Shown: positions 1-27,493 of the stretch, in pieces
Layout: the number at the start of each line of letters is the position of its first letter
Numbering within the stretch: the first letter of the stretch is position 1
Assembly: GCA_002305355.1 (NCBI GenBank)
Contig: DBQS01000036.1
Location: 15,612-79,611, forward strand
Direction: 5' to 3'
Origin: Patescibacteria group bacterium UBA1388
Lineage (GTDB): Bacteria > Patescibacteriota > Microgenomatia > UBA1400 > PJMF01
Length of the DNA: 64,000 nucleotides
Position numbers and translations under genes: made by a program
The notes under the pieces: generated by a model
What the model was told of the DNA's origin: nothing
Seen by the model: only the letters and a program-made list of their open reading frames with translations
Database searches by the model: none

Positions 1-107
1 TCAAGCATTTCGTGATCAGATTTGTCATTTAAATTTTGATCTTGATCCATTTTGGTTTGGGTTTTTTTCATGTGGTCTTTTTTCTGACTAGTCTGTTTTT
101 TTGACAT
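1..107 (-). CDS. 5' part of a gene immediately downstream of secE (possibly nusG with a low-complexity N-terminal extension); truncated by the window edge
   Basis: Minus-strand ATG at 107, reading MSKKQTSQKKDHMKKTQTKMDQDQNLNDKSDHEML; it starts 11 nt after the secE stop. Synteny suggests nusG but the KOW/NGN motifs are not reached. Confidence 0.25.
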   Translation of the reverse strand, partial: MSKKQTSQKKDHMKKTQTKMDQDQNLNDKSDHEML

Positions 108-118
108 AATTATTACTT

Positions 119-307
119 TTATCTTAATAACAAAGCTTGTGCAATGAGTTTTTGAAAGATGTAGTCAAGTGCTCCAATGTAAGCACCAATGATCAAACTA
201 ACGCCAACCACCAAAATGGTCATTTCAATGGTTTGATTTTTTGAAGGCCAAGTAACTTTTTTGAGCTCTCGTCCCACTTCACGAAAATAAGATCCTGGGT
301 TAAACAT
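119..307 (-). CDS. secE: Preprotein translocase subunit SecE
   Basis: 62 aa with a single C-terminal TM helix; the REVGRELKKVTWPSKNQT motif matches the conserved SecE cytoplasmic motif. Confidence 0.8.
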   Translation of the reverse strand: MFNPGSYFREVGRELKKVTWPSKNQTIEMTILVVGVSLIIGAYIGALDYIFQKLIAQALLLR

Positions 308-505
308 AGAACCGATATTCTATCAAATACCTGAAATAATTGAAAGTTCCACATAATAACCGCCGCTTATTGGTGAAGTGTTGCGTCAACACTTTTAAGA
401 TCAAACATATAAAACTTAAAATAAAACCAAGCAAGACGCCTACGATGTTAAGCAATTACATCATGATAGAACGAGTATTGTTGGCAACACTCTCATGGAG
501 GAAAA

Positions 506-2677
506 CTAACTTTTGTTGTCTGGTTTTAACTCTTCAATTTCTGAAGGGTTGTTAATACCTCCCGTCACGCCATGATCACTAACAGAAGGTTTGAGCGGGG
601 GAGTTATCCCATGGCCGTGTGTTTGAGGAGGAGTTTGAGGAGGTTGCCAAGGAATGGTTGTTGAGCCGAATCTGTCTGGGTTCTCCCCTAGATCATCTAA
701 CCGATCATCGTGTGGGGAGAAAATACTAGCCAAAAATTTAAGTACAACCACAATCAGCATGATTACACCAATACCCACAATGATAAAAGGCAAGTAAGAC
801 ATAAAATCACGTTTTGGAAATTCTGGAGCAAAGCTAGTTGACTCAGCAGCATCGAAATCGATCTCTGGAGCAGACGTTTCAGGTGTTTGATCGCTACCGG
901 GGATTGCAGATCTGATGAAATCGGCAATATCTATAAAAAACCCTTGCACCGATCCTAAAATCATATCCAGCATGCTTTCCTCAATTTCTACTTCATCGTC
1001 TATTGATGGAGGGGTAGGCGTCATAGTTGGAATGGGGGTAGGAATTGGTTTAGATGAAGCGCTGGCAGATGGCGAAGGTGAAGCTGAAGGCTGCAAACTT
1101 GAACTGACCGTTGGTGTGGCAAGTGGAGCAGTTTGACGACTATTGGTTGTCGTTGTTGATGCAGTTAATCTACCGGCGGTGGCAGCAGTACATGTTGTGC
1201 TACTGGGATTAGTTGCAAGACGGCAGGCGCCGTTGTAGCAGCGCAAGTTGTTGGCGCAATCGGCGTTGGCAGCACAGCTAACATTACACCCTTCTCTGAT
1301 TTGGGTGGTTTGATTCTCACTTAAAGTAGGACAGGAGGGGTCCTCGACATTGTAAGGATCCCGACATCGATTGTACCAACAAGTCAAGTTGCCACTACAT
1401 TCATTGGTGTCAGCACAGTATTCATTGCACGTCCTATTTAATCCTTGATCTGGAGGATTGTGGCAGACCGAGCTATTGACGTTGGTTGCCAACCGGCAGC
1501 GCTTGCCATCAACACCTGTATCGTAGCAACGCTCATTAGTGGAGCAGTCGCTATTACTGTTACAACGTTCGTTGCAAGTGTCGCTGACTTCATCATTTTC
1601 ATCATCTTCGTCGTCTTCATCTTCATCTGCAAATCTGAGGGTAAAGCTATACTGGTTATCATTTTCGTTTGATTCATCAATAGCGTTTTGATGATCAAGA
1701 CTGACGGTGAATTTATTATCGCCATCTTTAACAACAAAAACTGTTTCTAAGTCTGTTTTGGTGGCGTTTTTGTCTCTGAGCAGCGTGCTATAGCTCAAGT
1801 TTGATTTACCAAGACCACTATCAGCAGCTTGCAACACAATTTCAATCGGAGTTGGGTCGGTGCTACGTTCGTCATAGATACTATTGTTAATTTCTGCCTG
1901 ATGTTTGACAATGTAAAAATTTCCTATCTTCAGATTATCGGCACTCACCAGTTCGTTGCTATCTTGGTTATAAAAGAGAAAACGATCAGCCAACGCACTG
2001 GTGTTGGCGTATAAGTTGTCCCTCTTATCAGCAGTGGTCGCTTTTCCTACTTGAACAGTAATCGGTGCCACATGAGTGAGCTCATCTTTTATCGGTTGAG
2101 AATCGTAAATGGGAGCTATTGAGCGCTCAGTGTCAAAATTGAAAGTAATTTCACCAGTCTTGGTGGGAGTGAATGTTACAACAGCAAAAGTGGTAGCAGC
2201 ACTTGTTGAAAAAGGTTTCTCAGGATTGGATGAAATTGCTTTTATTTCCGCAGTGAAACCATGTTGAACTCGATCAACCTCTGTAGATAAAACGAGTAAA
2301 CCATCTGCTTTTGCATCAATCTGTATTTGATCAGCCACTTCAGTCACCACATCAAATACTAGCTGCACACCGTTCACTCGTACTTGATTGGTATTGACCT
2401 TTAATTCAATTGCGACTTCTTTTCCTACCACAATCTCTTGTGGATAAGTTGCGCTCACCTTCACTTTCCCTTCAACCACTGAAGCTTCTTGGCGAATATC
2501 CTGCGATTCTTGGATTGATTTTTGCGAAACGACCATTGTCAACAACAACAAACCAGTCAATACCAGCACGCCAAGCATGGTGAGCATCGATGAAGTGCGC
2601 TGCAGCCAAGGAAGCTTGTTTTTTGATGGTGAGTTCAAGTGTTGAGACATAACTGCTTTATATTGCTTTAATAACAA
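506..2677 (-). CDS. Large cell-surface protein: signal/TM (real start probably M31/M34 at 2587/2578), beta-rich cohesin-like module, poly-acidic tract, three Cys-rich modules, Pro/Thr/Ser linker, C-terminal TM anchor
   Basis: Translation shows an N-terminal hydrophobic segment MLTMLGVLVLTGLLLLTMVVS, the tract DEDEDDEDDENDE, three ~30-aa CNxxC..DC..NLxCYxxxCR modules, a PT-rich linker (PIPTPIPTMTPTPP) and a TM segment FIIVGIGVIMLIVVVLKFLASIF. Confidence 0.75.
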   Translation of the reverse strand: MLLKQYKAVMSQHLNSPSKNKLPWLQRTSSMLTMLGVLVLTGLLLLTMVVSQKSIQESQDIRQEASVVEGKVKVSATYPQEIVVGKEVAIELKVNTNQVRVNGVQLVFDVVTEVADQIQIDAKADGLLVLSTEVDRVQHGFTAEIKAISSNPEKPFSTSAATTFAVVTFTPTKTGEITFNFDTERSIAPIYDSQPIKDELTHVAPITVQVGKATTADKRDNLYANTSALADRFLFYNQDSNELVSADNLKIGNFYIVKHQAEINNSIYDERSTDPTPIEIVLQAADSGLGKSNLSYSTLLRDKNATKTDLETVFVVKDGDNKFTVSLDHQNAIDESNENDNQYSFTLRFADEDEDDEDDENDEVSDTCNERCNSNSDCSTNERCYDTGVDGKRCRLATNVNSSVCHNPPDQGLNRTCNEYCADTNECSGNLTCWYNRCRDPYNVEDPSCPTLSENQTTQIREGCNVSCAANADCANNLRCYNGACRLATNPSSTTCTAATAGRLTASTTTTNSRQTAPLATPTVSSSLQPSASPSPSASASSKPIPTPIPTMTPTPPSIDDEVEIEESMLDMILGSVQGFFIDIADFIRSAIPGSDQTPETSAPEIDFDAAESTSFAPEFPKRDFMSYLPFIIVGIGVIMLIVVVLKFLASIFSPHDDRLDDLGENPDRFGSTTIPWQPPQTPPQTHGHGITPPLKPSVSDHGVTGGINNPSEIEELKPDNKS

Positions 2678-2679
2678 AA

Positions 2680-3687
2680 TTATTTAAATGCGTTCACAAA
2701 AAGATTAAAATCCATTATATCCACTTTTTCGTCCTGATTGATATCTCCCCGCAAGCGGTAATACGACCCAGTGGCTCCATAATTGACAACTAAAATGTGA
2801 TAGTCAAACAAATCTACTAAACCGTCTTGATTGAAATCAGCGGGTGGAAGATTTGTTGGTGGGCAAGGTCTAAAGATACAATTGTTTTGGGGATCCCTGC
2901 TGACACTCGATCCATCGGGGCAAATTTTAACATCTGCTGCACAGACTATGTCTGACTCGCTTTCTGAAGTAAACGCTTCCACTTTGATATTTTTGAAAAA
3001 AATCTTGCTTCGTTCATCTGCAGATGTTAAAATCATATCTCCTTGATGGGAATATGGCTGACCAAGATTGCCTTTAAAAAAAGGAACTTCGTCAGCAGCA
3101 AAAAAAATCCATTCAGGATTAAGATTGACCGAGTCGTAGGTGCGCAATTCGTTTGTCCACCAAGTGTTGCTATCCTTATAGAAGTAGGCATAGAATCTCA
3201 TTTCTTGATCATTTTCTGTCCACGCTACTTCCAAAGTAGTGTAGTTTTGATCACCACTGGTGGGAGGGTCAGAATGGATTAAAAATTTATCAGTGTTACC
3301 CACAAATACTTCACCCTCTGACTCAATCATGAAACTATCAGCTTGAAGATAGGTATGCTCTGTTTTCCAGACGATGGGATTGTCTGTTTGGTATTGCACC
3401 GAATCAGGTGGTAATGTTTCAATCGTGGCAAAAGAATTTGATTCTGCAGCTAACTGTGAATCAGACTGAAAAGCAAGTTGTGGGGTATCATTTACAGCTT
3501 GTGAATCAATGAAAAATTGATGCAATGCTGCTGTGACCAGCATTGGTAGAAAGGCGGCGAGTAAAGCCAAGGTAATAAGTTGTTTAGGAGGTAATTGCCT
3601 AATTTTTTCGACAGCAACAAGAAATTTTGATTTAGAATGATTTAGTTTGGGTGTTGTGTCCATCGCAAAATCTTTGCTGTGCTTCAA
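2680..3687 (-). CDS. Secreted/membrane-anchored protein with a C-terminal dockerin module
   Basis: N-terminal TM LITLALLAAFLPMLVTAAL. The C-terminus DFNQDGLVDLFDYHILVVNYG...GDINQDEKVDIMDFNLFVNAFK is a duplicated DxNxDGxVDxxD calcium-binding dockerin signature. It lies 2 nt upstream of the 506..2677 gene. Confidence 0.75.
   Translation of the reverse strand: MKHSKDFAMDTTPKLNHSKSKFLVAVEKIRQLPPKQLITLALLAAFLPMLVTAALHQFFIDSQAVNDTPQLAFQSDSQLAAESNSFATIETLPPDSVQYQTDNPIVWKTEHTYLQADSFMIESEGEVFVGNTDKFLIHSDPPTSGDQNYTTLEVAWTENDQEMRFYAYFYKDSNTWWTNELRTYDSVNLNPEWIFFAADEVPFFKGNLGQPYSHQGDMILTSADERSKIFFKNIKVEAFTSESESDIVCAADVKICPDGSSVSRDPQNNCIFRPCPPTNLPPADFNQDGLVDLFDYHILVVNYGATGSYYRLRGDINQDEKVDIMDFNLFVNAFK
2683..2847 (-). 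other. Dockerin type-I-like module (two Ca-binding repeats)
   Basis: DFNQDGLVDLFD and DINQDEKVDIMD, each followed by a hydrophobic helix. Confidence 0.7.
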
Positions 3688-3810
3688 TCGGTTTAAATTT
3701 TAGCTACAATGAATCTAACATTAAAAACGCACGAGTCATAGCTACGAACCTAGCATCTAGCTTAACTCTTGAATCGAGCGGCTGTCAACATGAAATGATA
3801 AAAAATTGTT

Positions 3811-5136
3811 TTGAATAATAAAATGATCAGGGTTTATAAGTTGACACAATTAGAGAAAATCATTGTAGCTTGGTTGGTTTTAGGTTGGTCGTGGTTGGCG
3901 ACAGTAGGTTGGGTAATTGGCCTAACTGGTTTTGATTTGATTCCAGAGTTAGTGCGCGTTACATCATTTTATATTTGGAGTGAGGGGTTGATGGTGCTGA
4001 CTTTGTTGGACTGGTTGGGGCGTGTTGGGAAAACCGTCAGCTTTCCACACTTGGACAGATCAGGCAAATTATTGGGCTTGGCATTGATGATGCACCTGGG
4101 GTGGATTGCCATCACTGCGGTGTTGGGTGAAAACCCGGCCCAGAGTTTTTGGGGAAATTATTATCGACAGGACGGTTTGTTGACGCTGGCTCATCTAGCA
4201 ATGTGGGTAGTGATGATTGGCTTGTGGTGGCGAGAAATTTGGGGCCAGTGGTTATGGTTGCTGATTGCTCTAAGTGGAATAGTTTTATCACTTGGTTTGG
4301 TGTTGATGCATGTTTGGCAATGGGCAATGGTGATGGGGGGTTGGCCAGAAAGGGTAATCCAAAGTTCATTGCTGATGACTGGCGGTTTTGGTCACCCGGC
4401 TTACTTGGCGGGCTTTTTGGTGTTAACTTTGCCTTTTATTTGGTTTTTGCCTAATTTGCTTGCTAGGTCTGGTGAGTTTGAAAAGGGTTATGAGGGGCGG
4501 CGGCGGGAGTGGCTCAGGGGGGTGGGGTTGGTCAGCGCCGCCGCCGCCATCATCTTGACTCAATCAACAGGTGCTACGCTGGCCTTGGTCATTTTTTTTG
4601 GAATGACATTATTTGCATCCTTTCGTCGTCGAGCCTTGAGAATAGAGATTATTGTTTTGATCGGCGTGGCAGTCTTCGTCACCTCAACCTGGATCTATGT
4701 TTCACAACTTAATTCTTATGAAGGTAGGCCAAGAATTTTCCATAACCTGTGGTCAGCCAGTCAGCAACGACCAATTATTGGTTGGGGCTGGGCAAATATT
4801 GACTCAGCTTTTAAAAATGTAGAGTGGCCATATCCAGTGCAATTTGATGTTTATTTGGATAAAGCCCATTCTCACATGTTGGAAATATTGGTAGCAACGG
4901 GTTGGCCAGGACTAATAATCTACTTGGCTTTTATAAGTATCTTGTTGCTCATAGCTTTCAGTAAATACAAGAAAATAACACTTAAAAAAAGATCAACAAA
5001 CCAATATTATTTGGCAATACTGATGTGTTTGGTACTGTATATCTTTCACTCCCAAACAAATGTCATCTCAATTATGGAAGAAATAATCTTCTGGTTTTGT
5101 GTGGGTCTGGTGATTGACTCAACAAAAGTTATTTGA
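3811..5136 (+). CDS. O-antigen ligase (Wzy_C)-like polytopic membrane protein
   Basis: About 10 TM helices. The KAHSHMLEILVATGWPGL motif matches the Wzy_C AHNxxLxxxxExGxxG signature. Confidence 0.65.
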   Translation: MNNKMIRVYKLTQLEKIIVAWLVLGWSWLATVGWVIGLTGFDLIPELVRVTSFYIWSEGLMVLTLLDWLGRVGKTVSFPHLDRSGKLLGLALMMHLGWIAITAVLGENPAQSFWGNYYRQDGLLTLAHLAMWVVMIGLWWREIWGQWLWLLIALSGIVLSLGLVLMHVWQWAMVMGGWPERVIQSSLLMTGGFGHPAYLAGFLVLTLPFIWFLPNLLARSGEFEKGYEGRRREWLRGVGLVSAAAAIILTQSTGATLALVIFFGMTLFASFRRRALRIEIIVLIGVAVFVTSTWIYVSQLNSYEGRPRIFHNLWSASQQRPIIGWGWANIDSAFKNVEWPYPVQFDVYLDKAHSHMLEILVATGWPGLIIYLAFISILLLIAFSKYKKITLKKRSTNQYYLAILMCLVLYIFHSQTNVISIMEEIIFWFCVGLVIDSTKVI

Positions 5137-5147
5137 ACTGTTCGTCA

Positions 5148-6983
5148 CTACGAGGCATTACGAAAGATAACTACCCAAGCATTAAAATCAAGGATATCAA
5201 TCCGACCATTGTTATCCATGTCTGAAGAGGTAAATCCCGGATTACCGGTTCTACCGTACTCGCTAACAAAAACATTAAAGTCCAGAAGATTGATGATGTT
5301 GTCTTGATTGAAGTCGCCTCTCAATGTGTTGCCGGTTGAGCAAGTTGCCGTTCGAATTGAACGGGTTGGGCTTGAGCTAAAGCCATTCCATAAATTAACA
5401 TAGTATTGAGTATTTTCAGATAAATTTAGGGCAGGTTGATTGGATTGGGGTAAAAAATTGGCTGGAGCAATTATTTGAAAATATTGACTTGAGTTGTTAG
5501 CGGTGACTAGATCAACTTTCTTAATGGTGCTGCTCCAAAATTTATCGAAAGTTGGGTTTTTGCTAATATTAGCGACAGACACAGCTTGTTGGTAATTTGC
5601 TGGCCACTGAATTCTAATAATCGGCTGTCGGCCATTTTGTGTGGTGATACAGCTTGAACTAAGAGTAGGGGCTGATGGGGTCAGAGGGGTTTGTAGAAAA
5701 TTGGCAAATTCCCGATTGATCTGATTAATACTGACTCGGTTAAAAGCATTTCCTCCGGGTTCAAAATAATGTCTCATAATTGAGTTTTCAGATGAGCGGT
5801 AAAGGTTGGGGTAATAACAACCAGCTAAGCAATCCGTTCCATCAATATTTTCCCATTTTGGACAGCTGGCTACATCGCAGTTGGCTCTTGATAGGACGAA
5901 TTGTGTGTTCGAAGAAGCATGATGATCTACTAAATATTCATCTGCCAACCTACCGAATGCATGACCAAGCTCATGAACAGCTATAGATAGATAGTCCACG
6001 TCAGTCGAGACTATAGCGATTCTGTCGTAAGCAGTGCCAGCTGGTTGATTGGAATCGTAAAGTACGATGACGTTATCAACCCAAACGTATTTAAGCAACT
6101 GTACTAAAGCAGTCCGATTACACTCGATAAGAGTTTGTCCAACATATGGAATATTACAGTTAATTGATTGGGTGAATATCTTCTTGATTTTAATATCATT
6201 TCTATGCTGATTGAATGGTTTGTAGGTTAACAAATGTTGCAAGATATGATTCACATGTTGATCAAATTTTGCTCTATCTGTGTAGTTGGAGCTAACGAAA
6301 ACGAAATCAATTTGCCCGTTATAAAATGAAATATTATTTGAGTAGTTATTTTGTGTAACACCCAATACTTGTTGATCGGGATCGTCTAGGGCAAAATCTG
6401 AAGAATTCAAATCTACTGACTCAATGATTAACTCATCTTCATTGATTATGGTTGTGGGTTCGGAGGGTGACGACAAGAGTTGAGCATTAATGAGCGGAAT
6501 GATTTCTCCTGTTTCAGTTTTCCTGATCTGCAGTTGAGCTTTCGGCCACACCTTAAAAGCAATCGTCAGACTATCCTTAAGTTGACCCCCAGACCTATCA
6601 CCATCATAGTAAATTGTAAAATTAAGAGGAATGGAGTCGACAATCTCTTCTCCAACTATCTGATCTAGAATAAGTTCTGGGTTAGGTTGAGTGATAAGTG
6701 GTAAATTCATTCCTTCAAATTTTTCTACGCTTTCCAAAATAATTTTGTCATCTTGATAGGTTAAGTTGGCTAGAACAAAAATTGGCTCCTGATTTGTCGT
6801 CGCTTGACTGCGAATATCTTGAGTGCCAGGTTCCTGATCTTGAGCATTAGGTTGTTGCTCTTGGATTAAACCCAACTGCGATACCATAGGTTTAGCAGTG
6901 TAAAATAAAACACCGATTAAACTCATAAAGAGGAGAATTGTTTTAATATTAGAATAGTGATGTTGTGTTTGATGAACCAACAT
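5148..6983 (-). CDS. Secreted zinc metalloprotease (HExxH...DEY, M64-like) with a C-terminal dockerin module
   Basis: N-terminal signal/TM ILLFMSLIGVLFYTA; VHELGHAFGRLADEY at nt 5934..5975; C-terminus DFNQDNIINLLDFNVFVSEYG...DMDNNGRIDILDFNAWVVIF. Confidence 0.75.
   Translation of the reverse strand: MLVHQTQHHYSNIKTILLFMSLIGVLFYTAKPMVSQLGLIQEQQPNAQDQEPGTQDIRSQATTNQEPIFVLANLTYQDDKIILESVEKFEGMNLPLITQPNPELILDQIVGEEIVDSIPLNFTIYYDGDRSGGQLKDSLTIAFKVWPKAQLQIRKTETGEIIPLINAQLLSSPSEPTTIINEDELIIESVDLNSSDFALDDPDQQVLGVTQNNYSNNISFYNGQIDFVFVSSNYTDRAKFDQHVNHILQHLLTYKPFNQHRNDIKIKKIFTQSINCNIPYVGQTLIECNRTALVQLLKYVWVDNVIVLYDSNQPAGTAYDRIAIVSTDVDYLSIAVHELGHAFGRLADEYLVDHHASSNTQFVLSRANCDVASCPKWENIDGTDCLAGCYYPNLYRSSENSIMRHYFEPGGNAFNRVSINQINREFANFLQTPLTPSAPTLSSSCITTQNGRQPIIRIQWPANYQQAVSVANISKNPTFDKFWSSTIKKVDLVTANNSSQYFQIIAPANFLPQSNQPALNLSENTQYYVNLWNGFSSSPTRSIRTATCSTGNTLRGDFNQDNIINLLDFNVFVSEYGRTGNPGFTSSDMDNNGRIDILDFNAWVVIFRNAS
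5151..5321 (-). other. Dockerin type-I-like module (two Ca-binding repeats)
   Basis: DFNQDNIINLLD and DMDNNGRIDILD repeats. Confidence 0.7.
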
Positions 6984-7105
6984 ATAGTAATTTGATTTAC
7001 CACAGCTGAGTTAAGTCAGTATAGATCAATTTTTGAATGCGGTATACTATTTCGGTACGTAGGATATAAAACTAAATACTATTCGTAATACACGATGGGA
7101 GGCAA

Positions 7106-7996
7106 ATGACAGAGAGTATTGTTCGTAAAGCTATCATTACCGACGCTGGGTTTGCCAGTAGGTACTTACCCATTACTAAGACTATTCCCAAAGCGATGTT
7201 GCCGCTTGGCAACAAACCAGTCATGCAGTTCATGGTGGAGGAGTGTACACAGGCTGGAATCCAGGAAATTATTATTGTGGCCACCCCAGAGGGTAAACCA
7301 ATTTATGAGGATTATTTCCATAATAGTGTAATTCGGATCAAGAAGCAGCTTGAGTCGCAAGGTAAATTGGATCGTTACGAGCCTGTACAGCGAGTATTAG
7401 ACTTCCCTAAAATTACCATCATCACTCAAGACCCAAGCTTGCCATATGGTAATGGTTCACCAGTCGCATCTGCTCAAAAATTTGTCGAGGGAGAAGAAGC
7501 ATTTTTGGTAATGTACAGTGATGATGTGGTTTATGGCGAACATGGTGATGCCAAGGCATTGGTTGACTTATTTGCTGCTCGAAAAGATGCCGATGCGATT
7601 ATTATGGCTCAAGAGGTGAGCTCGGAAGTTGTTGACAAGTATGGCATTATTTCTTTTAAAGATGGCACCGATAATCAACTTGATAACATTATTGAAAAAC
7701 CAGAAGTTGGTCAAGCTCCTTCCACGCTGGCTTCTTATGGCCGTTACCTGTTGAAACCCTCAATATTTGATCATCTGGTGCCGAAGTATACGGGCAAAGA
7801 CGGTGAGTTGTGGACAGTTGATGCGATCACTAAAATTGCTGAGTCAGGAACAGTGTTGGTAGAAAAAACTAAAGGCCAATGGCTTACAACCGGCGATCCG
7901 GAAAATTATTTTAGAGCTTATTTGGAATTTGTGATCAAGTTTGAAAAATATGGTCACAAAATACCGGCGTGGTTAGAAGAAATTGGTGGAGTTTGA
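7106..7996 (+). CDS. galU: UTP-glucose-1-phosphate uridylyltransferase
   Basis: ITDAGFASRYLPITKTIPKAMLPLGNKPVMQFMVEE is the nucleotidyltransferase G-loop typical of GalU. GGGAGG RBS 4 nt upstream. Confidence 0.75.
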   Translation: MTESIVRKAIITDAGFASRYLPITKTIPKAMLPLGNKPVMQFMVEECTQAGIQEIIIVATPEGKPIYEDYFHNSVIRIKKQLESQGKLDRYEPVQRVLDFPKITIITQDPSLPYGNGSPVASAQKFVEGEEAFLVMYSDDVVYGEHGDAKALVDLFAARKDADAIIMAQEVSSEVVDKYGIISFKDGTDNQLDNIIEKPEVGQAPSTLASYGRYLLKPSIFDHLVPKYTGKDGELWTVDAITKIAESGTVLVEKTKGQWLTTGDPENYFRAYLEFVIKFEKYGHKIPAWLEEIGGV

Positions 7997-8325
7997 CACT
8001 CCAGCAAGAACATAATCGTTCGCTTCAATTCTGAATTTAGGTCTAATTAAAGACTTATCGCCAATGATATAATGAGTTCAGCAGGGATCGTTAACAATCG
8101 GGTGTGGGAGATGCAGATGTTTTCCTGAACACCTCGTATACGGGCGATAGACTGTCTGAGTGCGTCGTGGCGCACGCAGCTTCTTACCCACTTTGTATTT
8201 GCGGGGAATTGCGTCTCTCACATTCGGCGGTTAGACAATCTGAAGAGTTCTTCAGAGTGGGGTTTGGTATGTAGTTTGGCGTGATTGTTACCACGTTTGA
8301 CATTGTGATGTTAGGAACATATTAA

Positions 8326-8401
8326 GCCTTCGTAGCTCAGGTGGCAGAGCGCTTTCTTGGTAAGAAAGAGGTCTCGGGTCCGACTCCCGACGAAGGCTCC
8401 A
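8326..8401 (+). tRNA. tRNA-Thr (anticodon GGT)
   Basis: Cloverleaf: acceptor GCCTTCG/CGAAGGC, D-stem GCTC/GAGC, anticodon loop TTGGTAA, T-loop, encoded CCA. Confidence 0.85.
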
Positions 8402-8852
8402 AAGAAGATGGTGGAGTTGATTGGAGTTTAGTTGCCGGCAAAATATTTCTTCACAAACTTGGAGGGTTGTGGATTTTACTTCCGACCAAATCTTCAGCTT
8501 CCATAATTTTTGTTTTTCTAACGGACAAAACTCATTTGAAAAGTGGAACGTTTTGCACATATTATTGAAAACATATTAGTTTTTAGACAACTCAGTATTA
8601 TTTAGACAAGTCAGTTTTTGGTCGATCTAATGTAGCAGATCTCCAAAATTATTCACTGGAAACAAACTTGTCACGCATGGCAAATAAAAGTGGTTAACAA
8701 AAACAATTAACCCGCGCAGTGGCAAAACTTGGATCATTGATCAATAAATTTATACTCAGCCATTATTTTCACAGACCATCCCCCCATGCGAAGAGGATAT
8801 CTAATGTAGTACAATATGACTTCGGCTGATATTTTATTACCAGTCCAAAGGT

Positions 8853-8935
8853 GCCAGGTTACCCAAGCGGTCAACGGGGGCAGACTGTAAATCTGCTGGC
8901 TTACGCCTTCAGAGGTTCGAATCCTTTACCTGGCA
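8853..8935 (+). tRNA. tRNA-Tyr (anticodon GTA), long variable arm
   Basis: Acceptor GCCAGGT/ACCTGGC, anticodon loop CTGTAAA, long variable arm, T-loop TTCGAAT; CCA not encoded. Confidence 0.85.
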
Positions 8936-8956
8936 CTTTTTTAGTGGACAAAAAAT

Positions 8957-9331
8957 ATGCATTTGAATTTTGAAGAATCACCATATTTATTTAACAGGTA
9001 TTCTTCTCAAACTCGCCCTAATACGGAGCTGACTGGCTCGACATTTCGGGAAGATTGGGAAACTGATTATCCCATGGCGGGTTGTGTCTTAAATCACACT
9101 GATCCTCTTACAATCATTTCAGCTGCTCAAAAAAACGGGATTGCTTTTAACTTTGAACAATTTTTACACGCGATGCAATGGGACCCAATGACTCCTTTTG
9201 TCGTTGATTTTAATGGTGGAAGAGTGAAATATTCCAATTTTCTAGAGGTGGTTGGGGTACTCAATCGGTTGCATGCATTAACACATCCCTTCCCGAAATT
9301 AAATCAAAAACAAAGCAGAATTAGCCAATAA
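8957..9331 (+). CDS. Hypothetical protein (124 aa) lying between tRNA genes
   Basis: Open frame only; no recognisable motifs. Confidence 0.35.
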   Translation: MHLNFEESPYLFNRYSSQTRPNTELTGSTFREDWETDYPMAGCVLNHTDPLTIISAAQKNGIAFNFEQFLHAMQWDPMTPFVVDFNGGRVKYSNFLEVVGVLNRLHALTHPFPKLNQKQSRISQ

Positions 9332-9343
9332 CTAGCCTTTAAA

Positions 9344-9352
9344 TGATACAAT
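9344..9352 (+). promoter_or_regulatory. Extended -10 element TGaTACAAT, 12 nt upstream of the tRNA-Thr(TGT) 5' end
   Basis: TGn+TACAAT motif; the same motif recurs upstream of tRNA-Trp, rpmB, purB and cysS. Confidence 0.35.
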
Positions 9353-9363
9353 ACATGGGTAGA

Positions 9364-9437
9364 GCCACCTTAGCTCAGTTGGTCAGAGCGACGGTTTTGT
9401 AAACCGTAGGTCTAGGGTTCGAGTCCCTAAGGTGGCT
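9364..9437 (+). tRNA. tRNA-Thr (anticodon TGT)
   Basis: Acceptor GCCACCT/AGGTGGC, D-stem GCTC/GAGC, anticodon stem ACGGT/ACCGT with loop TTTGTAA, T-loop TTCGAGT. Confidence 0.85.
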
Positions 9438-9795
9438 CAGATTGGTGAAATAGCATATGTTGGAACTAAATTTATGATTGAAATGAAGTGCTATGGTTCA
9501 AGACCAGAAGTATCACTCAGCTCTGATGAAAATTTGCACACTTTTCATAATGCATAAGAAGTAGTAATTTCCTTATTGAAAGGTTAAGTTTGAGGTATGG
9601 TAATAATGAACAAGATGGAACTCATGGTGTTCATAGGAGAAAAAGAGGACGACCACGCAAAGTGAGAGCAGAAATAAGAAAAGCGGAAGCAGAATTAGAA
9701 AATTAACGTCAAGTATGCTAGCTGGCTATAATCTGAGATTTGAGTTATACTACGCCTCTTGAAATAAAATTTTTAAGTGTTTTTGAAAGAAAAAT

Positions 9796-9999
9796 ATGGC
9801 AAAAGCAAAAAAAGGACCACGCCAAATTGTAGGGTTAAAATGCAAAGCATGTGGCAATTTTGGTTACTTAACGGAGTTTAACAAAAATAACGAACAGTTG
9901 AAAAAACAAACCACTGGTGAAACAACTTTCCCCCTGAAGAAGTATTGTGCTGTTTGTCGCAAGCACACCGTGCACGTTCAGGCGAAGAAGTTAAAATAA
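9796..9999 (+). CDS. rpmG: 50S ribosomal protein L33
   Basis: 67 aa, KCKACGN...CAVCRKHTVH C4 zinc ribbon, lysine-rich, L33-like. Confidence 0.8.
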   Translation: MAKAKKGPRQIVGLKCKACGNFGYLTEFNKNNEQLKKQTTGETTFPLKKYCAVCRKHTVHVQAKKLK

Positions 10000-10101
10000 C
10001 TTCCAAATTTTCCGCCTAACCCTAAAACTGTTTACAATTACTGGCCGGTTTATCTATAGGGGGGGTTATTGCTTGTCGAAAACTTTCCCGATCAAGTTCA
10101 T

Positions 10102-11445
10102 CTATTTGGTTTTTCTATTGACGCTGAGTTTGCTGATCTGTTTGTAAGCAGCCACGATATTTTTGGCGCCATTAAGATATAACCGATCAATTCGAAGGAC
10201 ATTGTGCATTGCTTTTTCAATCCAAGATTGGGCTTTTCCTTGGGCAGATTGTAGGACAGCAAGTTGAGTCAGAATTTGCTCGACATTGGCGCGGCGGCTG
10301 ATGTCTTGCTGCTCAAATATTTCCCTAATCCGGTGCTCCCATTCACCCCACTCGCGTAAGGTGAGCACAAAGCAGCCCGCTGCCACAGCATCATAAGTCA
10401 TATCACCTGAGGGCTTGGTAATAAAACCATGCGCCCATGGAAAGGCGTATTTGATTAATAGTTCATTGGCATCCACAATCTGGGGGTGGTAGAGCAGCCG
10501 TAACTTTGCGGAACGATCATTGTCTGCTCCCACAGCTACGCGGTGTTGTTTAGCCATTTCTCTAACCATGGTAGCAATATCGTGGTGAGTGCCAGCATAG
10601 ACAATTAATTTTAAAGCAGGTTTTTGTCTCCTTAATTCTGGCAGAAACTGAAGGAGCAATTGCTCAATCTCGGTTTTATTGGTGCCGAGCCCGCCAGTAG
10701 TTAACGCAAGTTTTAATACACCAGATCGCCATGGTGTTTTTTTCTCTCTACAAGCCACAATTCGGGGATCGACTGGTGAACCAGTCACAAAAATTCGAGA
10801 TGCATCCAATTTTTTGTCTTGAAGCGCAGCCTTTTCCAAAAGTTCCAATTTTGTGTTTTCATCAAAAACGCAGTAATAAAGGTTTGGTTGATCGGCGTAT
10901 GTGACGTAATCGTATCGCACATGAGGATCGGTAATAACCTGTAACACGGTCTTACCTTGACCCACCAAAATGTTTCCGGTGGCAACGTGCAAAGATAAAA
11001 TTGGCCGATTCACACTTTCTGTTAAGTAGAGTAAGGGTTCGGTGATACTGTTTAAGATAGGTAATTTTTGTCTCCCAAATCGGTCAATAAGATCTTTGAC
11101 GTTTTTTAAAATTGGATAACGGGCGATAGTTTTTCCTACTTTGTCCGTCAACTGGACAGAAAACCAATCATCAGCGGAGACATAATTAGTCGGGTCTGCC
11201 AGCCACGCTTTTTTAGGATCTTGTTTACCTCCCCAAACCTGACATGCGACACCAACCGCCATTGAATAATGGGCCCGAGAAAAAACTATATCCTGGGTAG
11301 TGTCAATGTCTGGTAAACCATGCATTTTTTTCAGATCTTCTTGATAAGTGCCAGAAACCGTCACAATTGGTAGCTGGGTTGACTGAAGATACTTTTTGTC
11401 TTTTCTTAGGGTTTTTTCAAGGACGGGGTCAAATAATTCTGGCAT
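10102..11445 (-). CDS. Glycosyltransferase, GT28/MGDG-synthase (UgtP/MurG-like) family
   Basis: LALTTGGLGTN resembles the N-terminal G-rich loop; ITKPSGDMTYDAVAAGCFVL resembles the C-terminal xTKPGGxTxxEAxA motif of MGDG synthases. Confidence 0.45.
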   Translation of the reverse strand: MPELFDPVLEKTLRKDKKYLQSTQLPIVTVSGTYQEDLKKMHGLPDIDTTQDIVFSRAHYSMAVGVACQVWGGKQDPKKAWLADPTNYVSADDWFSVQLTDKVGKTIARYPILKNVKDLIDRFGRQKLPILNSITEPLLYLTESVNRPILSLHVATGNILVGQGKTVLQVITDPHVRYDYVTYADQPNLYYCVFDENTKLELLEKAALQDKKLDASRIFVTGSPVDPRIVACREKKTPWRSGVLKLALTTGGLGTNKTEIEQLLLQFLPELRRQKPALKLIVYAGTHHDIATMVREMAKQHRVAVGADNDRSAKLRLLYHPQIVDANELLIKYAFPWAHGFITKPSGDMTYDAVAAGCFVLTLREWGEWEHRIREIFEQQDISRRANVEQILTQLAVLQSAQGKAQSWIEKAMHNVLRIDRLYLNGAKNIVAAYKQISKLSVNRKTK

Positions 11446-11593
11446 GAAATCTAGTTTATAAGTTTTCTGTCTGGTCGTCTAGAGGAAGACTGGGCAAAAC
11501 AAAGTGCCAATAAATGGATGAAAAACTTCTCCAGATCAAAATAAATTTAAATGAGGATTGGCTAACTTAACGTGTGATCGATTGAACAGATTA

Positions 11594-12223
11594 CTAAATA
11601 CCGATTTGTTGAATCGTCACTTGTTCACTCACAAAGATGCCGTAGTTACAAGGGCATTGACCGCCGGTATTAATGTTCTCACCTGAGGATGGGGTAGGGT
11701 TGGCAAATGCCATCACCTCAATCATCTGCACTTGATTATTCATAAGCCGCAAATAACCGGCTACTGAACCAAAAGGACTTTGTATATCCTGAGTGTTGAT
11801 CCGGTAACCATTGATTTCAAGTGATTTAGAAAAGCCCTGATTGGTGAGGTATTGGTCGGCAGCGGTCATGAACTGTTCTGGTGAGAGTGCAGGTTGACTA
11901 CTGGTCGATGCATTAACATCTTGATTAAGATCAACTGTAGTTTCCGCGACCCACAACTGCCCATTTGGAAAAAAAGATCTGTGGTCATTTGTAGAAGTTG
12001 ATTCAACTGTCAATAACGGTTGGTAACTTTGAAAAAAGATCGGTCGATTATCATTCGTTGTTTTGGTAAAACTCAATTCAGGGTAGAGGTTTGATATTTG
12101 TTCGGCTGAAACTAAGGTCAAAGTAGGTGGAAACAGTTGAGTTCGAAATTTGAACATTAAAAGCCCGGTTGCCAATATTGCCGTTAATAAAATTACAAAT
12201 AAATATAGTCTCTTTTTGCTCAT
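11594..12223 (-). CDS. Hypothetical secreted protein (N-terminal signal/TM)
   Basis: N-terminus MSKKRLYLFVILLTAILATGLLMF; nothing else recognisable. Confidence 0.45.
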   Translation of the reverse strand: MSKKRLYLFVILLTAILATGLLMFKFRTQLFPPTLTLVSAEQISNLYPELSFTKTTNDNRPIFFQSYQPLLTVESTSTNDHRSFFPNGQLWVAETTVDLNQDVNASTSSQPALSPEQFMTAADQYLTNQGFSKSLEINGYRINTQDIQSPFGSVAGYLRLMNNQVQMIEVMAFANPTPSSGENINTGGQCPCNYGIFVSEQVTIQQIGI

Positions 12224-12302
12224 GGGGAGTAGCTTATCATGAAATAATGAATGGAACTATTTTGTATAAGTAGGATGAAACTAAAATATTACCTGGTCTT
12301 TA

Positions 12303-25261: not shown

Positions 25262-27493
25262 TTATGATGATAGTTGAAGTTGAGCAGAAATGGAGGCCAA
25301 AAGATCTAAAGCGAGCTGATTATCTGGAGAAATGTTTGCTAAGATGTATTTCAATTGCTCAGCAGCTTCTTCAAGTTGATTGTTTTCGTAGTATGCGACC
25401 GCTAATTGATAATGTGCTACTTCATAGTCTGGTTTAAGGTTTACAGCTTGTTGTAAATGATCCAGTCCCTGGTCTATTTGCTGCAAACTAATTTCGATTA
25501 GTCCCAAATTATACAATATTTTTGGATCAGTGGAGGATAACTTTTGAGCAATTTCCATTGCTTCAGCGGCTTTAACCAAATATTTGGGGTCTAGTTGGGA
25601 AAGGGTAATAAATGTTCTGGCGCGAGTTTTATAAAAATTAAGTTGATGGGGGTTGAGTTTCATAACTGCCTCACTGCTTTGTTCAGCAGCAGTTGCAAAT
25701 TGTTGCGCCTCTTCCGGTTTTTCACTCTGGGCGAGGTTAATCGCGGCCGTCGCGAAAACGGTGGCCAACTGATCATAGTAGGTTGCTTCATATTTATTAA
25801 GCTCAATAGCACGGTAGAGACTAGTGATGGCGGCTTCGGGCTGGCCGGCAGCGGCAGCAGATTTTCCTTGAGAGTAAGCCAGATCAGCCTGCCAGTAGCG
25901 TAGGGTGGCGCTGAGACTCAGTAAGCCGGCCAGCCCTGCCGCGCTCATTAATAATATTTGTGTCAGATTAAGTCCTCGGTGTGATGTTTTATCTTCAGGC
26001 CATTCATAAATAGGTTGGTTGATTAAAACCATCACTGCCATGAAAAGGTACATTAAAATGGTGACCATTACCGTAGAAAATCCAAAAAAATTTGAGAGAC
26101 TGAGGGCTGCCACGCCAGCGAGCACTCCCGCTGACAATAGCTGCATATGCTGATCGGAGGTTGGCACATGAGGTTGAAAAATTTTAATCAGACTAAAAAT
26201 CCCGAACCAACCGAGTAATAACAAGTAGCTCGCTAACCCAACTGCGCCACTAGTTGCTAAATAATTTAGAAATTCATTGTGCGCTTTATTGTATAAAAAA
26301 TCCCATTCTGAGACAAAATTGTGATCAACTGGTCGGTCGAGATAATAACTATAAGCGAAAGTTTCCAGACCCGAACCGAAAATTGGATAACGCTGCCAGA
26401 TTTTTATCGCTCCGCTCCACACAATTTTTCTAATCTCGCCGGAATCTGTCCCTCCGGTTTCCAACCGGTTGACAACCGGCATAGACTCGGTATCCGTCGC
26501 GACCTGATTAGTCTGACTGGTATTCCACTTGAGGGTTGGGGTATAAGGAGCATCAATCAGTACCGTCATCAATAAGCAAATACTGATTACCACTGAAAGG
26601 AGCTGCCACCGCTGTTTTATCAGAGAAATAAGCATCTTTTGGCGTTTTAAAATCCATAGCAATAACACAAAGAGAATGGTTAATCCCAACCCTAACCCTA
26701 AAATACCAGACCTAGATTTAGTAAATAATAGGGTGGCAAACATCAAAATAAGTGATCCAGCATAGAGCCATCGCAACCGTTGTTTTCGATTGATTAACGT
26801 GAACACCGCTCCAACCGGAATCAGCGTGATGAGATAAGCCGCGAGCCAATTTGGTTGACCGAAGCTGGCAAAAACGCGGTTTTGCACATCCTGAACCCAG
26901 CAATTGACTCCAAAAGAAGTGCCTTTAGTGGCGAGCCAGCAGCTAATGGAATGACCAAAGTGTTCAAGACTAGCATAAACAGAAGTCAAAACTGCAGCGA
27001 GAAAGGTGGTTAAAAACAAACTTGGAAGATGTTTTTTTTGAATATTGGTTACAAAAGCATAATAAAGTGCCACATAAGTGATAATAGATAGTAATCCACC
27101 GTGAAAACGCGAGTAGTACCCAAATAGAGAAGTATAAGGATGGAGTGAAAAAATAGTAGCCAGCAATTGAGACAGCAAAAAAACCACGATGGGAATATCC
27201 AGTGGCGTACGACGAAAGACAAACTGTTTAGCGGCAATCATTTTTACCACCCAGGCTAATATGATGATAATTGCTAAGGCATAAGTGAGCACCATCTTGT
27301 TAAACTCAAAGAGCTCACTGGTGTTAAACCAGAAAAATAAAGGTACCATCAAAAGAAGCGCATGAAAGCTTGTTACCAAAGTAGCTTGGGACCACTGCAA
27401 CAAACCGGACTCTTGATGATTGTGAAGAGCAGCGGCAGATTTAGTTTGAGTTGGTTGTTGACGCGCTAGTTTGCGGCGATGTTTTTTTGACAC
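25262..27493 (-). CDS. O-antigen ligase (Wzy_C) family polytopic membrane protein with C-terminal TPR repeats
   Basis: Multiple TM helices; NKAHNEFLNYLATSGAVGL Wzy_C motif; C-terminal 200 aa with TPR-like repeats (AYSQGKS..., YNLGLIEISLQQIDQGLDHLQQAVNLKPDYEVAHYQLAVAYY). Confidence 0.7.
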   Translation of the reverse strand: MSKKHRRKLARQQPTQTKSAAALHNHQESGLLQWSQATLVTSFHALLLMVPLFFWFNTSELFEFNKMVLTYALAIIIILAWVVKMIAAKQFVFRRTPLDIPIVVFLLSQLLATIFSLHPYTSLFGYYSRFHGGLLSIITYVALYYAFVTNIQKKHLPSLFLTTFLAAVLTSVYASLEHFGHSISCWLATKGTSFGVNCWVQDVQNRVFASFGQPNWLAAYLITLIPVGAVFTLINRKQRLRWLYAGSLILMFATLLFTKSRSGILGLGLGLTILFVLLLWILKRQKMLISLIKQRWQLLSVVISICLLMTVLIDAPYTPTLKWNTSQTNQVATDTESMPVVNRLETGGTDSGEIRKIVWSGAIKIWQRYPIFGSGLETFAYSYYLDRPVDHNFVSEWDFLYNKAHNEFLNYLATSGAVGLASYLLLLGWFGIFSLIKIFQPHVPTSDQHMQLLSAGVLAGVAALSLSNFFGFSTVMVTILMYLFMAVMVLINQPIYEWPEDKTSHRGLNLTQILLMSAAGLAGLLSLSATLRYWQADLAYSQGKSAAAAGQPEAAITSLYRAIELNKYEATYYDQLATVFATAAINLAQSEKPEEAQQFATAAEQSSEAVMKLNPHQLNFYKTRARTFITLSQLDPKYLVKAAEAMEIAQKLSSTDPKILYNLGLIEISLQQIDQGLDHLQQAVNLKPDYEVAHYQLAVAYYENNQLEEAAEQLKYILANISPDNQLALDLLASISAQLQLSS

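Follow-up and report, generated by a model that had tools for sequence, protein, structure and literature searches.

A dockerin-tagged protein encoded beside a probable divergent, membrane-anchored cohesin in a member of the Patescibacteria

We analysed 64,000 nucleotides of contig DBQS01000036.1 from Patescibacteria group bacterium UBA1388 (this whole stretch is called the window, and positions count from its first letter), starting from the open reading frame (ORF) at 2680-3687. Its product ends in what is almost certainly a homologue of the dockerin family, preceded by a conserved domain of its own, which we call domain X. The gene directly downstream, p723, encodes a membrane-anchored protein whose N-terminal domain is probably a divergent cohesin. 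Together with a nearby M64-like peptidase that also ends in a dockerin, the two proteins probably form a minimal display system outside any cellulosome, in which one anchored cohesin would depend on calcium to hold two dockerin-tagged cargoes, the X protein and the peptidase. An earlier note, made from the DNA letters alone, had called the dockerin canonical type I, a label that our comparisons do not support.

The C-terminal dockerin module

The translation of the X-dockerin gene ends in ...PPADFNQDGLVDLFDYHILVVNYGATGSYYRLRGDINQDEKVDIMDFNLFVNAFK*, as quoted in the earlier note, and the C-terminal 53 residues of the protein read ADFNQDGLVDLFDYHILVVNYGATGSYYRLRGDINQDEKVDIMDFNLFVNAFK. Aspartate or asparagine occupies positions 1, 3, 5, 9, and 12 of both predicted calcium-binding loops (D284, N286, D288, D292, and D295 in loop 1; D315, N317, D319, D323, and D326 in loop 2). 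The earlier note had described two 12-residue loops of the pattern DxNxDGxVDxxD; loop 1 fits exactly, and loop 2 departs from it by a glutamate at position 6. A scan of all six frames of the window with the relaxed pattern D.[NDS].[DNS]..[VILA][DNST]..[DE] found only four occurrences, arranged as two pairs with a spacing of 31 residues each at the C termini of ORFs 2680-3687 and 5148-6983. Block shuffles (n=200) contained 0.3 such motifs on average and pairs in 0/200 cases, and the observed motifs are thus far above chance.

Dockerin_1 (PF00404) was the best Pfam family for the protein. Against a gathering threshold of 22.9 bits, the full-length sequence scored 20.8 bits and fell short, and the isolated last 60 residues passed with 26.6 bits; the dockerins of the M64-like peptidase and of the closest homologue, P0001, reached 24.1 and 23.0 bits, respectively. 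In a phmmer search of the PDB with the 60-mer, six of the seven best matches were dockerins, each of them weak (E=0.016-1.2). We then aligned 23 C-terminal modules, of which 20 came from homologues detected by exhaustive search, two from the window, and one from P0001. The family profile built from them retrieved 36 solved chains at E<=0.01, of which 34 were dockerins and two were EF-hand proteins at E>=5e-3. The best match, 2y3n_B, the dockerin of Pseudobacteroides cellulosolvens Cel48, had E=1.6e-12 and covered profile positions 4-58 of 59, that is, both repeats.

Structure prediction points in the same direction. We modelled with AlphaFold a fusion of p723 residues 56-215 and X-dockerin residues 62-335 from a 69-row alignment (mean predicted local distance difference test score [pLDDT], 79.8), a design that imitates natural homologues such as P0085, in which all four modules lie on one chain. 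In this model, each loop is followed by a confidently predicted helix that starts inside the loop, and the module as a whole has a pLDDT of 89-96. Predicted secondary structure and confidence are compatible with paired F-hands, in which an antiparallel helix pair would have the two calcium loops at opposite ends. Most entries in the fold-search lists for the fusion model stemmed from the two beta domains, and no dockerin was among them.

A probable divergent cohesin in the downstream protein

Pfam recognizes no cohesin in p723: the Cohesin family (PF00963) gave no match at E<=1 with the full protein and none at E<=10 with the isolated N-terminal domain, and PDB profile searches with this domain returned either nothing or a match at E=0.12. 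Profile and fold comparisons nonetheless suggest that the domain is probably a divergent cohesin missed by Pfam. Related domains stand at the N termini of several domain-X proteins (P0018, P0085, P0036, P0009, P0072, and P0098), and in P0148, P0099, and P0155 a Pfam-verified cohesin takes the same position, directly after the membrane anchor and a short motif described below.

From the p723 N-domain family, we built a profile free of any Pfam-recognizable cohesin. In hhalign, it aligned to four Pfam-verified cohesins with a probability of 81% (P=1.2e-5). The alignment spans strands 2 to 8 in 102 columns, and its score of 38.4 compares with at most 14 in 30 column shuffles. Two earlier hhalign runs were set aside, one against three cohesins as inconclusive (probability 51%) and one with a probability of 98.8% since P0095 was present in both profiles. 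The family profile also matched an independent cohesin, the ORF at 1084-1665 of contig L006 (33.8 bits with Pfam Cohesin), at E=1.4e-8 and along the entire length (hmm positions 6-138). In the reverse direction, with a profile built from the four verified cohesins, the p723 domain ranked best among 355 ORF segments of the window (E=0.023).

In the fusion model, the p723 domain forms nine strands with pLDDT 80-93. When the model was compared with the PDB by Foldseek, the 24 matches at E<1e-3 were nearly exclusively cohesins, including 2w1n (E=7.9e-7), 2vo8 (E=3e-5; TM score, 0.76; root-mean-square deviation, 3.1 Å), 1g1k, 1ohz_A, 2ccl_A, and 1anu. Since the search reports matches without the matched query residues, their assignment to the p723 domain is ours; we made it because the profiles of domain X and of cohesins do not resemble each other (P=0.45), the strand count fits, and the best match aligns 304 columns with a cohesin-FN3 tandem, as would be expected of the p723 domain followed by X but not of X followed by the dockerin. 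LAMP-like folds also found in the search may stem from X; the DC-LAMP paper makes no statement on a likeness to cohesins. A fold search against a viral library was uninformative.

Alternative readings

That the C-terminal module is no dockerin, as the earlier note had considered in naming EF-hands and thrombospondin type 3 repeats as alternatives, is extremely unlikely. In favor of generic calcium loops of the EF-hand, FG-GAP, or thrombospondin type 3 kind are weak Pfam matches to the loops alone, for FG-GAP_3 (E=0.0048) and, in relatives, for EF-hand families (E=0.003-0.1). These matches span only 13-18 residues and lie below their cut-offs, whereas solved dockerins match the module over the entire length of both repeats, far beyond what the EF-hand proteins achieve, and helices follow both loops, unlike in thrombospondin type 3 repeats. 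That the module belongs to the canonical type I dockerins of cellulosomes, where it would dock a carbohydrate-active enzyme (CAZyme), is likewise very improbable. In favor of this reading, the Pfam family bears the name "Dockerin type I" (though this is simply a name), the loops agree with the consensus, and in the locus of a distant relative (L006), proteins with X, cohesin, and dockerin domains lie beside genes for Pel9A-like, CBM6/35, and CBM9 domains. Pages et al. (1997; cited in PMC2930009) are reported to have described a Ser-Thr dyad at recognition positions 10/11 and basic residues at positions 17/18 of Clostridium thermocellum type I dockerins. The dockerin studied here has L293-F294 and I324-M325 at positions 10/11 of its two repeats, and V-V and V-N at positions 17/18. 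Its best solved match, 2y3n_B, was reportedly deposited as part of a type II complex. Neither Pfam nor NCBIfam detected a CAZyme, carbohydrate-binding module (CBM), glycoside hydrolase, lectin, or protease family in the protein, for whose upstream part the earlier note had raised such folds; among its 98 homologues, no CAZyme or CBM was a common family, and the cargo part had no sequence match in the PDB. In the window, we found no multi-cohesin scaffoldin, only a single cohesin-like domain, and neither of its two dockerin proteins is a glycanase (the second is a peptidase). We reject the canonical label because of the hydrophobic dyads, the identity of the best match, the non-CAZyme cargo, and the single-cohesin, non-cellulosomal locus.

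A more serious alternative accepts the dockerin-like module as genuine and gives it another partner. This could be a cohesin elsewhere in the genome or on another cell, such as that of a host, or a ligand other than a protein, and the N-terminal domain of p723 would in that case serve just as a beta-sandwich part of the stalk. We consider this possible though unlikely. The failure of Pfam to recognize p723 speaks for it, as does the scope of the analysis, which covered 64 kb of the genome. Moreover, homologues often carry cohesin and dockerin on one chain (P0085, P0095, P0154/P0155), so that partner relations are not obvious, and for many dockerins outside cellulosomes, no partner is known (compare Peer et al. 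2009, as cited in PMC2930009). Against it stand the tight and conserved adjacency of the X-dockerin gene and p723 in four loci and the profile and fold evidence for a cohesin-like domain in p723. On balance, we favor p723 as the partner.

Architecture of the X-dockerin protein

Coordinates of all features are collected in Table 1. The protein is composed of a signal or anchor segment, a linker, domain X, a 4-Cys module, and the dockerin. The earlier description of a secreted protein with a transmembrane or signal segment and an N-terminal domain of no known family agrees with this layout, and its 280 N-terminal residues can now be divided into the hydrophobic helix, a variable, poorly conserved linker, domain X, and the 4-Cys module. 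Translation likely starts at the ATG, which is M9 of the longer frame, rather than at the TTG, since the ATG is used in public gene calls (a 140-kb Logan contig of SRR5321221, 100% identical to window positions 1-5587) and in P0001 (67% identity), which starts at the same position. The hydrophobic helix is a predicted signal peptide or signal anchor; a helix at residues 34-61 also appeared in a first AlphaFold model of the full protein, a model otherwise unusable (2-row alignment; pLDDT 37).

Table 1. Features of the X-dockerin locus in the window
Feature	Position	Strand	Remarks
X-dockerin gene (ORF)	2680..3687	minus	335 aa from TTG, 327 aa from ATG at 3663
Sole hydrophobic helix, LITLALLAAFLPMLVTAAL	3520..3582	minus	aa 36-56, preceded by basic residues; Kyte-Doolittle scan
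Domain X	2959..3390	minus	aa ~100-243, ~145 aa, beta-rich, conserved; no Pfam or PDB sequence match
4-Cys mini-module, CAADVKICPDGSSVSRDPQNNCIFRPCP	2854..2955	minus	aa 245-278; Cys 249, 256, 270, 275
Dockerin module	2683..2841	minus	aa 283-335, C terminus of the protein
Predicted calcium-binding loop 1, DFNQDGLVDLFD	2803..2838	minus	aa 284-295; exact DxNxDGxVDxxD fit
Predicted helix after loop 1	2785-2811	minus	aa 293-301, AlphaFold
Predicted calcium-binding loop 2, DINQDEKVDIMD	2710..2745	minus	aa 315-326; Glu replaces Gly at position 6
Predicted helix after loop 2	2686-2718	minus	aa 324-334, AlphaFold
p723	506..2677	minus	directly downstream of the X-dockerin gene; called as 693 aa from 2587
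Cohesin-like domain of p723	2042..2470	minus	aa ~70-212; candidate binding partner for both dockerins
C-terminal transmembrane helix of p723	722..796	minus	aa ~628-652; predicted membrane anchor, hydrophobicity scan
M64-like Zn-metallopeptidase	5148..6983	minus	611 aa; HELGH at 5961-5975; Pfam E=7e-8
Second dockerin of the locus	5151..5327	minus	loops at 5280-5315 and 5187-5222; Dockerin_1 24.1 bits

Domain X, with about 13 strands in the fusion model (pLDDT 83-96), appears from its homologues to represent a large uncharacterized family that frequently occurs alongside cohesin and dockerin modules. An exhaustive HMMER search with the X-dockerin protein detected 1868 cluster representatives at E<=1e-3, of which 606 reached E<=1e-10. 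They fall into two classes, proteins with domain X and proteins with 5-12 tandem Cys modules. A word-indexed search found only two relatives of the protein and no relative of the p723 N-domain. In a set of 98 domain-X proteins, X itself was covered by no Pfam family, Dockerin_1 was present in 34, and Cohesin was present in 5; in some proteins, X occurs in tandem. A profile of the protein's family matched only dockerins in the PDB, with no match for X. Named homologues belong to Patescibacteria, Candidatus Roizmanbacteria, and Candidatus Gottesmanbacteria. Nearly invariant residues of X are W107, SDP139-141, TLE151-153, W156, E158, MR163-164, YF168-169, W176, E180, RTY182-184, and W193. These Trp, Tyr, Asp, Glu, and Arg residues, together with the predicted beta structure, suggest a binding module, probably for a ligand.

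The 4-Cys module comprises 30 residues of the form C-x6-C-x-D-G-S-x-V-x-R-D-P-x-N-x-C-x-F-x2-C-P and matches no Pfam family. In hundreds of other proteins, for example P0002, P0004, and P0019, it is present in 5-12 tandem copies. Matches to complement factor H, obtained by phmmer with the full protein against the PDB (E>=0.024), arose by chance through the Cys-rich stretch, and weak matches to NttE (Pfam) and Lpg0189 (NCBIfam) at E~0.06 were also dismissed as chance, not being shared by the 98 homologues.

Comparison with L002, a contig of a close relative, revealed a mosaic. Window positions 3531-5330, which comprise a Wzy_C gene (O-antigen-ligase-like) and the start of the X-dockerin gene (~52 codons), are 98-100% identical in DNA to L002, and the rest of the X-dockerin gene, p723, and secE-nusG-rplK-rplA reach only 55-88%. 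The ~99% tract looks like recent recombination or transfer, with a breakpoint just past the part of the gene that encodes the putative signal anchor. Hypervariability of the X-dockerin gene between strains was considered as well and rejected, since secE-rplA sets a baseline of 81% from which the neighboring tract is the anomaly. L002 is a Genome Taxonomy Database (GTDB) contig labelled Pseudomonadales. The gene content (POR, ThyX, 41% G+C) and all named homologues point instead to the candidate phyla radiation (CPR), to which the window probably belongs too, and the label is a probable error.

p723 and the surrounding locus

Depending on the start codon chosen, p723 begins 3-92 nucleotides downstream of the X-dockerin gene on the same strand. 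A promoter and terminator scan found nothing above shuffled sequences and no terminator-like site between the two genes. From its N terminus, p723 consists of a hydrophobic helix, the motif QDIRQEA, the ~145-residue beta-rich cohesin-like domain, a CARDB-like region, three Cys-rich repeats, a Pro/Thr/Ser linker, a C-terminal transmembrane helix, and a cytoplasmic tail of ~70 residues. The Cys-rich repeats, of ~45 residues each (window 1190-1576; p723 residues 368-496), contain six cysteines each in an arrangement of the type CNExCxxxxxCxxxxxCYxxxCR, and no family could be assigned to them. The motif Q-[ED]-[LIVT]-R-x-x-A recurs 5-10 residues past the N-terminal hydrophobic helix in 30 of 145 related proteins (examples are SQDIRQEAS, TQDIRSQAT, and TQRIELRKRAA). 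It lies at 2483-2503 in p723 and at about 6801-6821 in the gene of the M64-like peptidase, and is missing from the X-dockerin protein. It may act in processing or sorting, as a signal specific to this lineage.

The M64-like peptidase resembles p723 in having an N-terminal anchor and the motif, here QDIRSQA, and it ends in a dockerin with L-L and I-L at positions 10/11, similar to those of the X-dockerin protein. The two dockerins and the one cohesin-like domain detectable in the window all lie within 6.5 kb on one strand. The pair of X-dockerin gene and cohesin-anchor gene is kept upstream of secE-nusG-rplK-rplA in three related contigs (L002, L004, and L005). The peptidase gene, situated between a Wzy_C and an NTP-transferase gene in the window, has its dockerin end also at positions 1-180 of L002 and is absent from L004 and L005, which are otherwise syntenic; the cargo set of the locus therefore varies between close relatives. 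In the more distant L006 (JGI 3300041082; positions 1-12300), the neighbors of the gene for the cohesin-X-dockerin protein P0095 are a small ORF that encodes a cohesin alone and genes for proteins with Pel9A-like beta-helix, CBM6/CBM35, and CBM9 domains, which hints that the same modules are linked to polysaccharide processing in some lineages. Elsewhere in the window (25262-27493), a second Wzy_C protein of 743 residues is fused to C-terminal TPR repeats, making two such multi-pass proteins in the window.

Proposed function and relation to known systems

The domain identities, established from sequence profiles and predicted structure, the adjacency of the two genes, and the conservation of the pair in related genomes lead to a simple proposal for the function of the locus. 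Signal-sequence cleavage, or retention of the segment as an anchor, would leave the X-dockerin protein outside the membrane. Its two F-hand repeats would bind Ca2+ and fold only with calcium, presenting a hydrophobic face of Leu293-Phe294, Ile324-Met325, and helix residues; the cargo would be the beta-rich domain X with its presumed ligand-binding function, followed by the 4-Cys module as a disulfide-knotted spacer. p723 would act as a type-I-like membrane protein with a long stalk that bears the divergent cohesin at its far end, the stalk being made up of the CARDB-like region, the Cys-rich repeats, and the Pro/Thr linker, above the C-terminal membrane anchor. We infer that the dockerin plugs into this cohesin in a calcium-dependent manner, which would tether the cargo to the cell surface, and that the M64-like peptidase, with its similar dockerin, uses the same anchor.

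One might go further and speculate on a surface-display or attachment system found throughout Patescibacteria, with Pfam-invisible cohesins, hydrophobic-face dockerins, a lineage-specific N-terminal sorting signal made of a hydrophobic helix and the motif Q-E/D-x-R-x-x-A, and domain X (>600 clusters) as the main cargo. We regard a system of this breadth as rather improbable; if it existed, it could serve to bind these episymbionts to glycans of host cells or of the environment rather than to degrade polysaccharides.

Non-cellulosomal cohesin-dockerin pairs are known but little studied, and the locus offers a compact, testable one, with a dockerin-cargo gene, a membrane-anchored cohesin gene, and a second dockerin on a peptidase. 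Three aspects are modestly new: a Pfam-invisible cohesin clade adjoining its probable partner, anchoring via a C-terminal transmembrane helix rather than SLH domains or sortase, and cargoes that consist of a widespread uncharacterized domain and a peptidase. Since Pfam appears to miss a whole cohesin clade, genome surveys based on it may undercount cohesin partners. Structural and ligand-binding studies could reasonably turn to the domain X family, whose members occur together with dockerins and cohesins. In the literature searched, we found no dedicated study of cohesin-dockerin pairs in CPR/Patescibacteria; CPR proteins have already been annotated as cohesin-containing, as in the case of MCX6793770.1.

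With the cellulosomal dockerins of PF00404, such as 2y3n_B, C. thermocellum CelS (2mte), and Xyn10B (1ohz_B), the X-dockerin module shares the duplicated 12-residue calcium loop and helix, Asp or Asn at loop positions 1, 3, 5, 9, and 12, a C-terminal module of ~55 residues, and the end-to-end profile match. It differs in the hydrophobic residues that replace Ser-Thr at positions 10/11, in a short linker with a 31-residue repeat spacing, in a second helix that ends at the C terminus of the protein, and in its non-CAZyme cargo and the lack of a cellulosome context. Cohesin-dockerin pairs outside cellulosomes are established (Peer et al. 2009, as cited in PMC2930009). Among them are the non-cellulosomal glycoside-hydrolase toxin complexes of Clostridium perfringens (cohesins 2w1n, 2vo8, and 2jh2; dockerin 2jnk/2ozn) and the cohesin of Archaeoglobus fulgidus (2xdh). 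In contrast to these, the cohesin carrier of the window appears to be anchored by a C-terminal transmembrane helix, its cohesin is too divergent for Pfam, and its cargoes are domain X and an M64-like peptidase. An annotated CPR example is MCX6793770.1 (P0155), a "cohesin domain-containing protein" of Candidatus Gottesmanbacteria found with the family profile. It has the same N-terminal layout as p723, with hydrophobic helix, Q-E/D-x-R-x-x-A motif, and cohesin, and the same style of dockerin helix (DLFDY...). Domain X is missing from it, and a single chain holds both cohesin and dockerin, whereas the window splits the two modules over adjacent genes.
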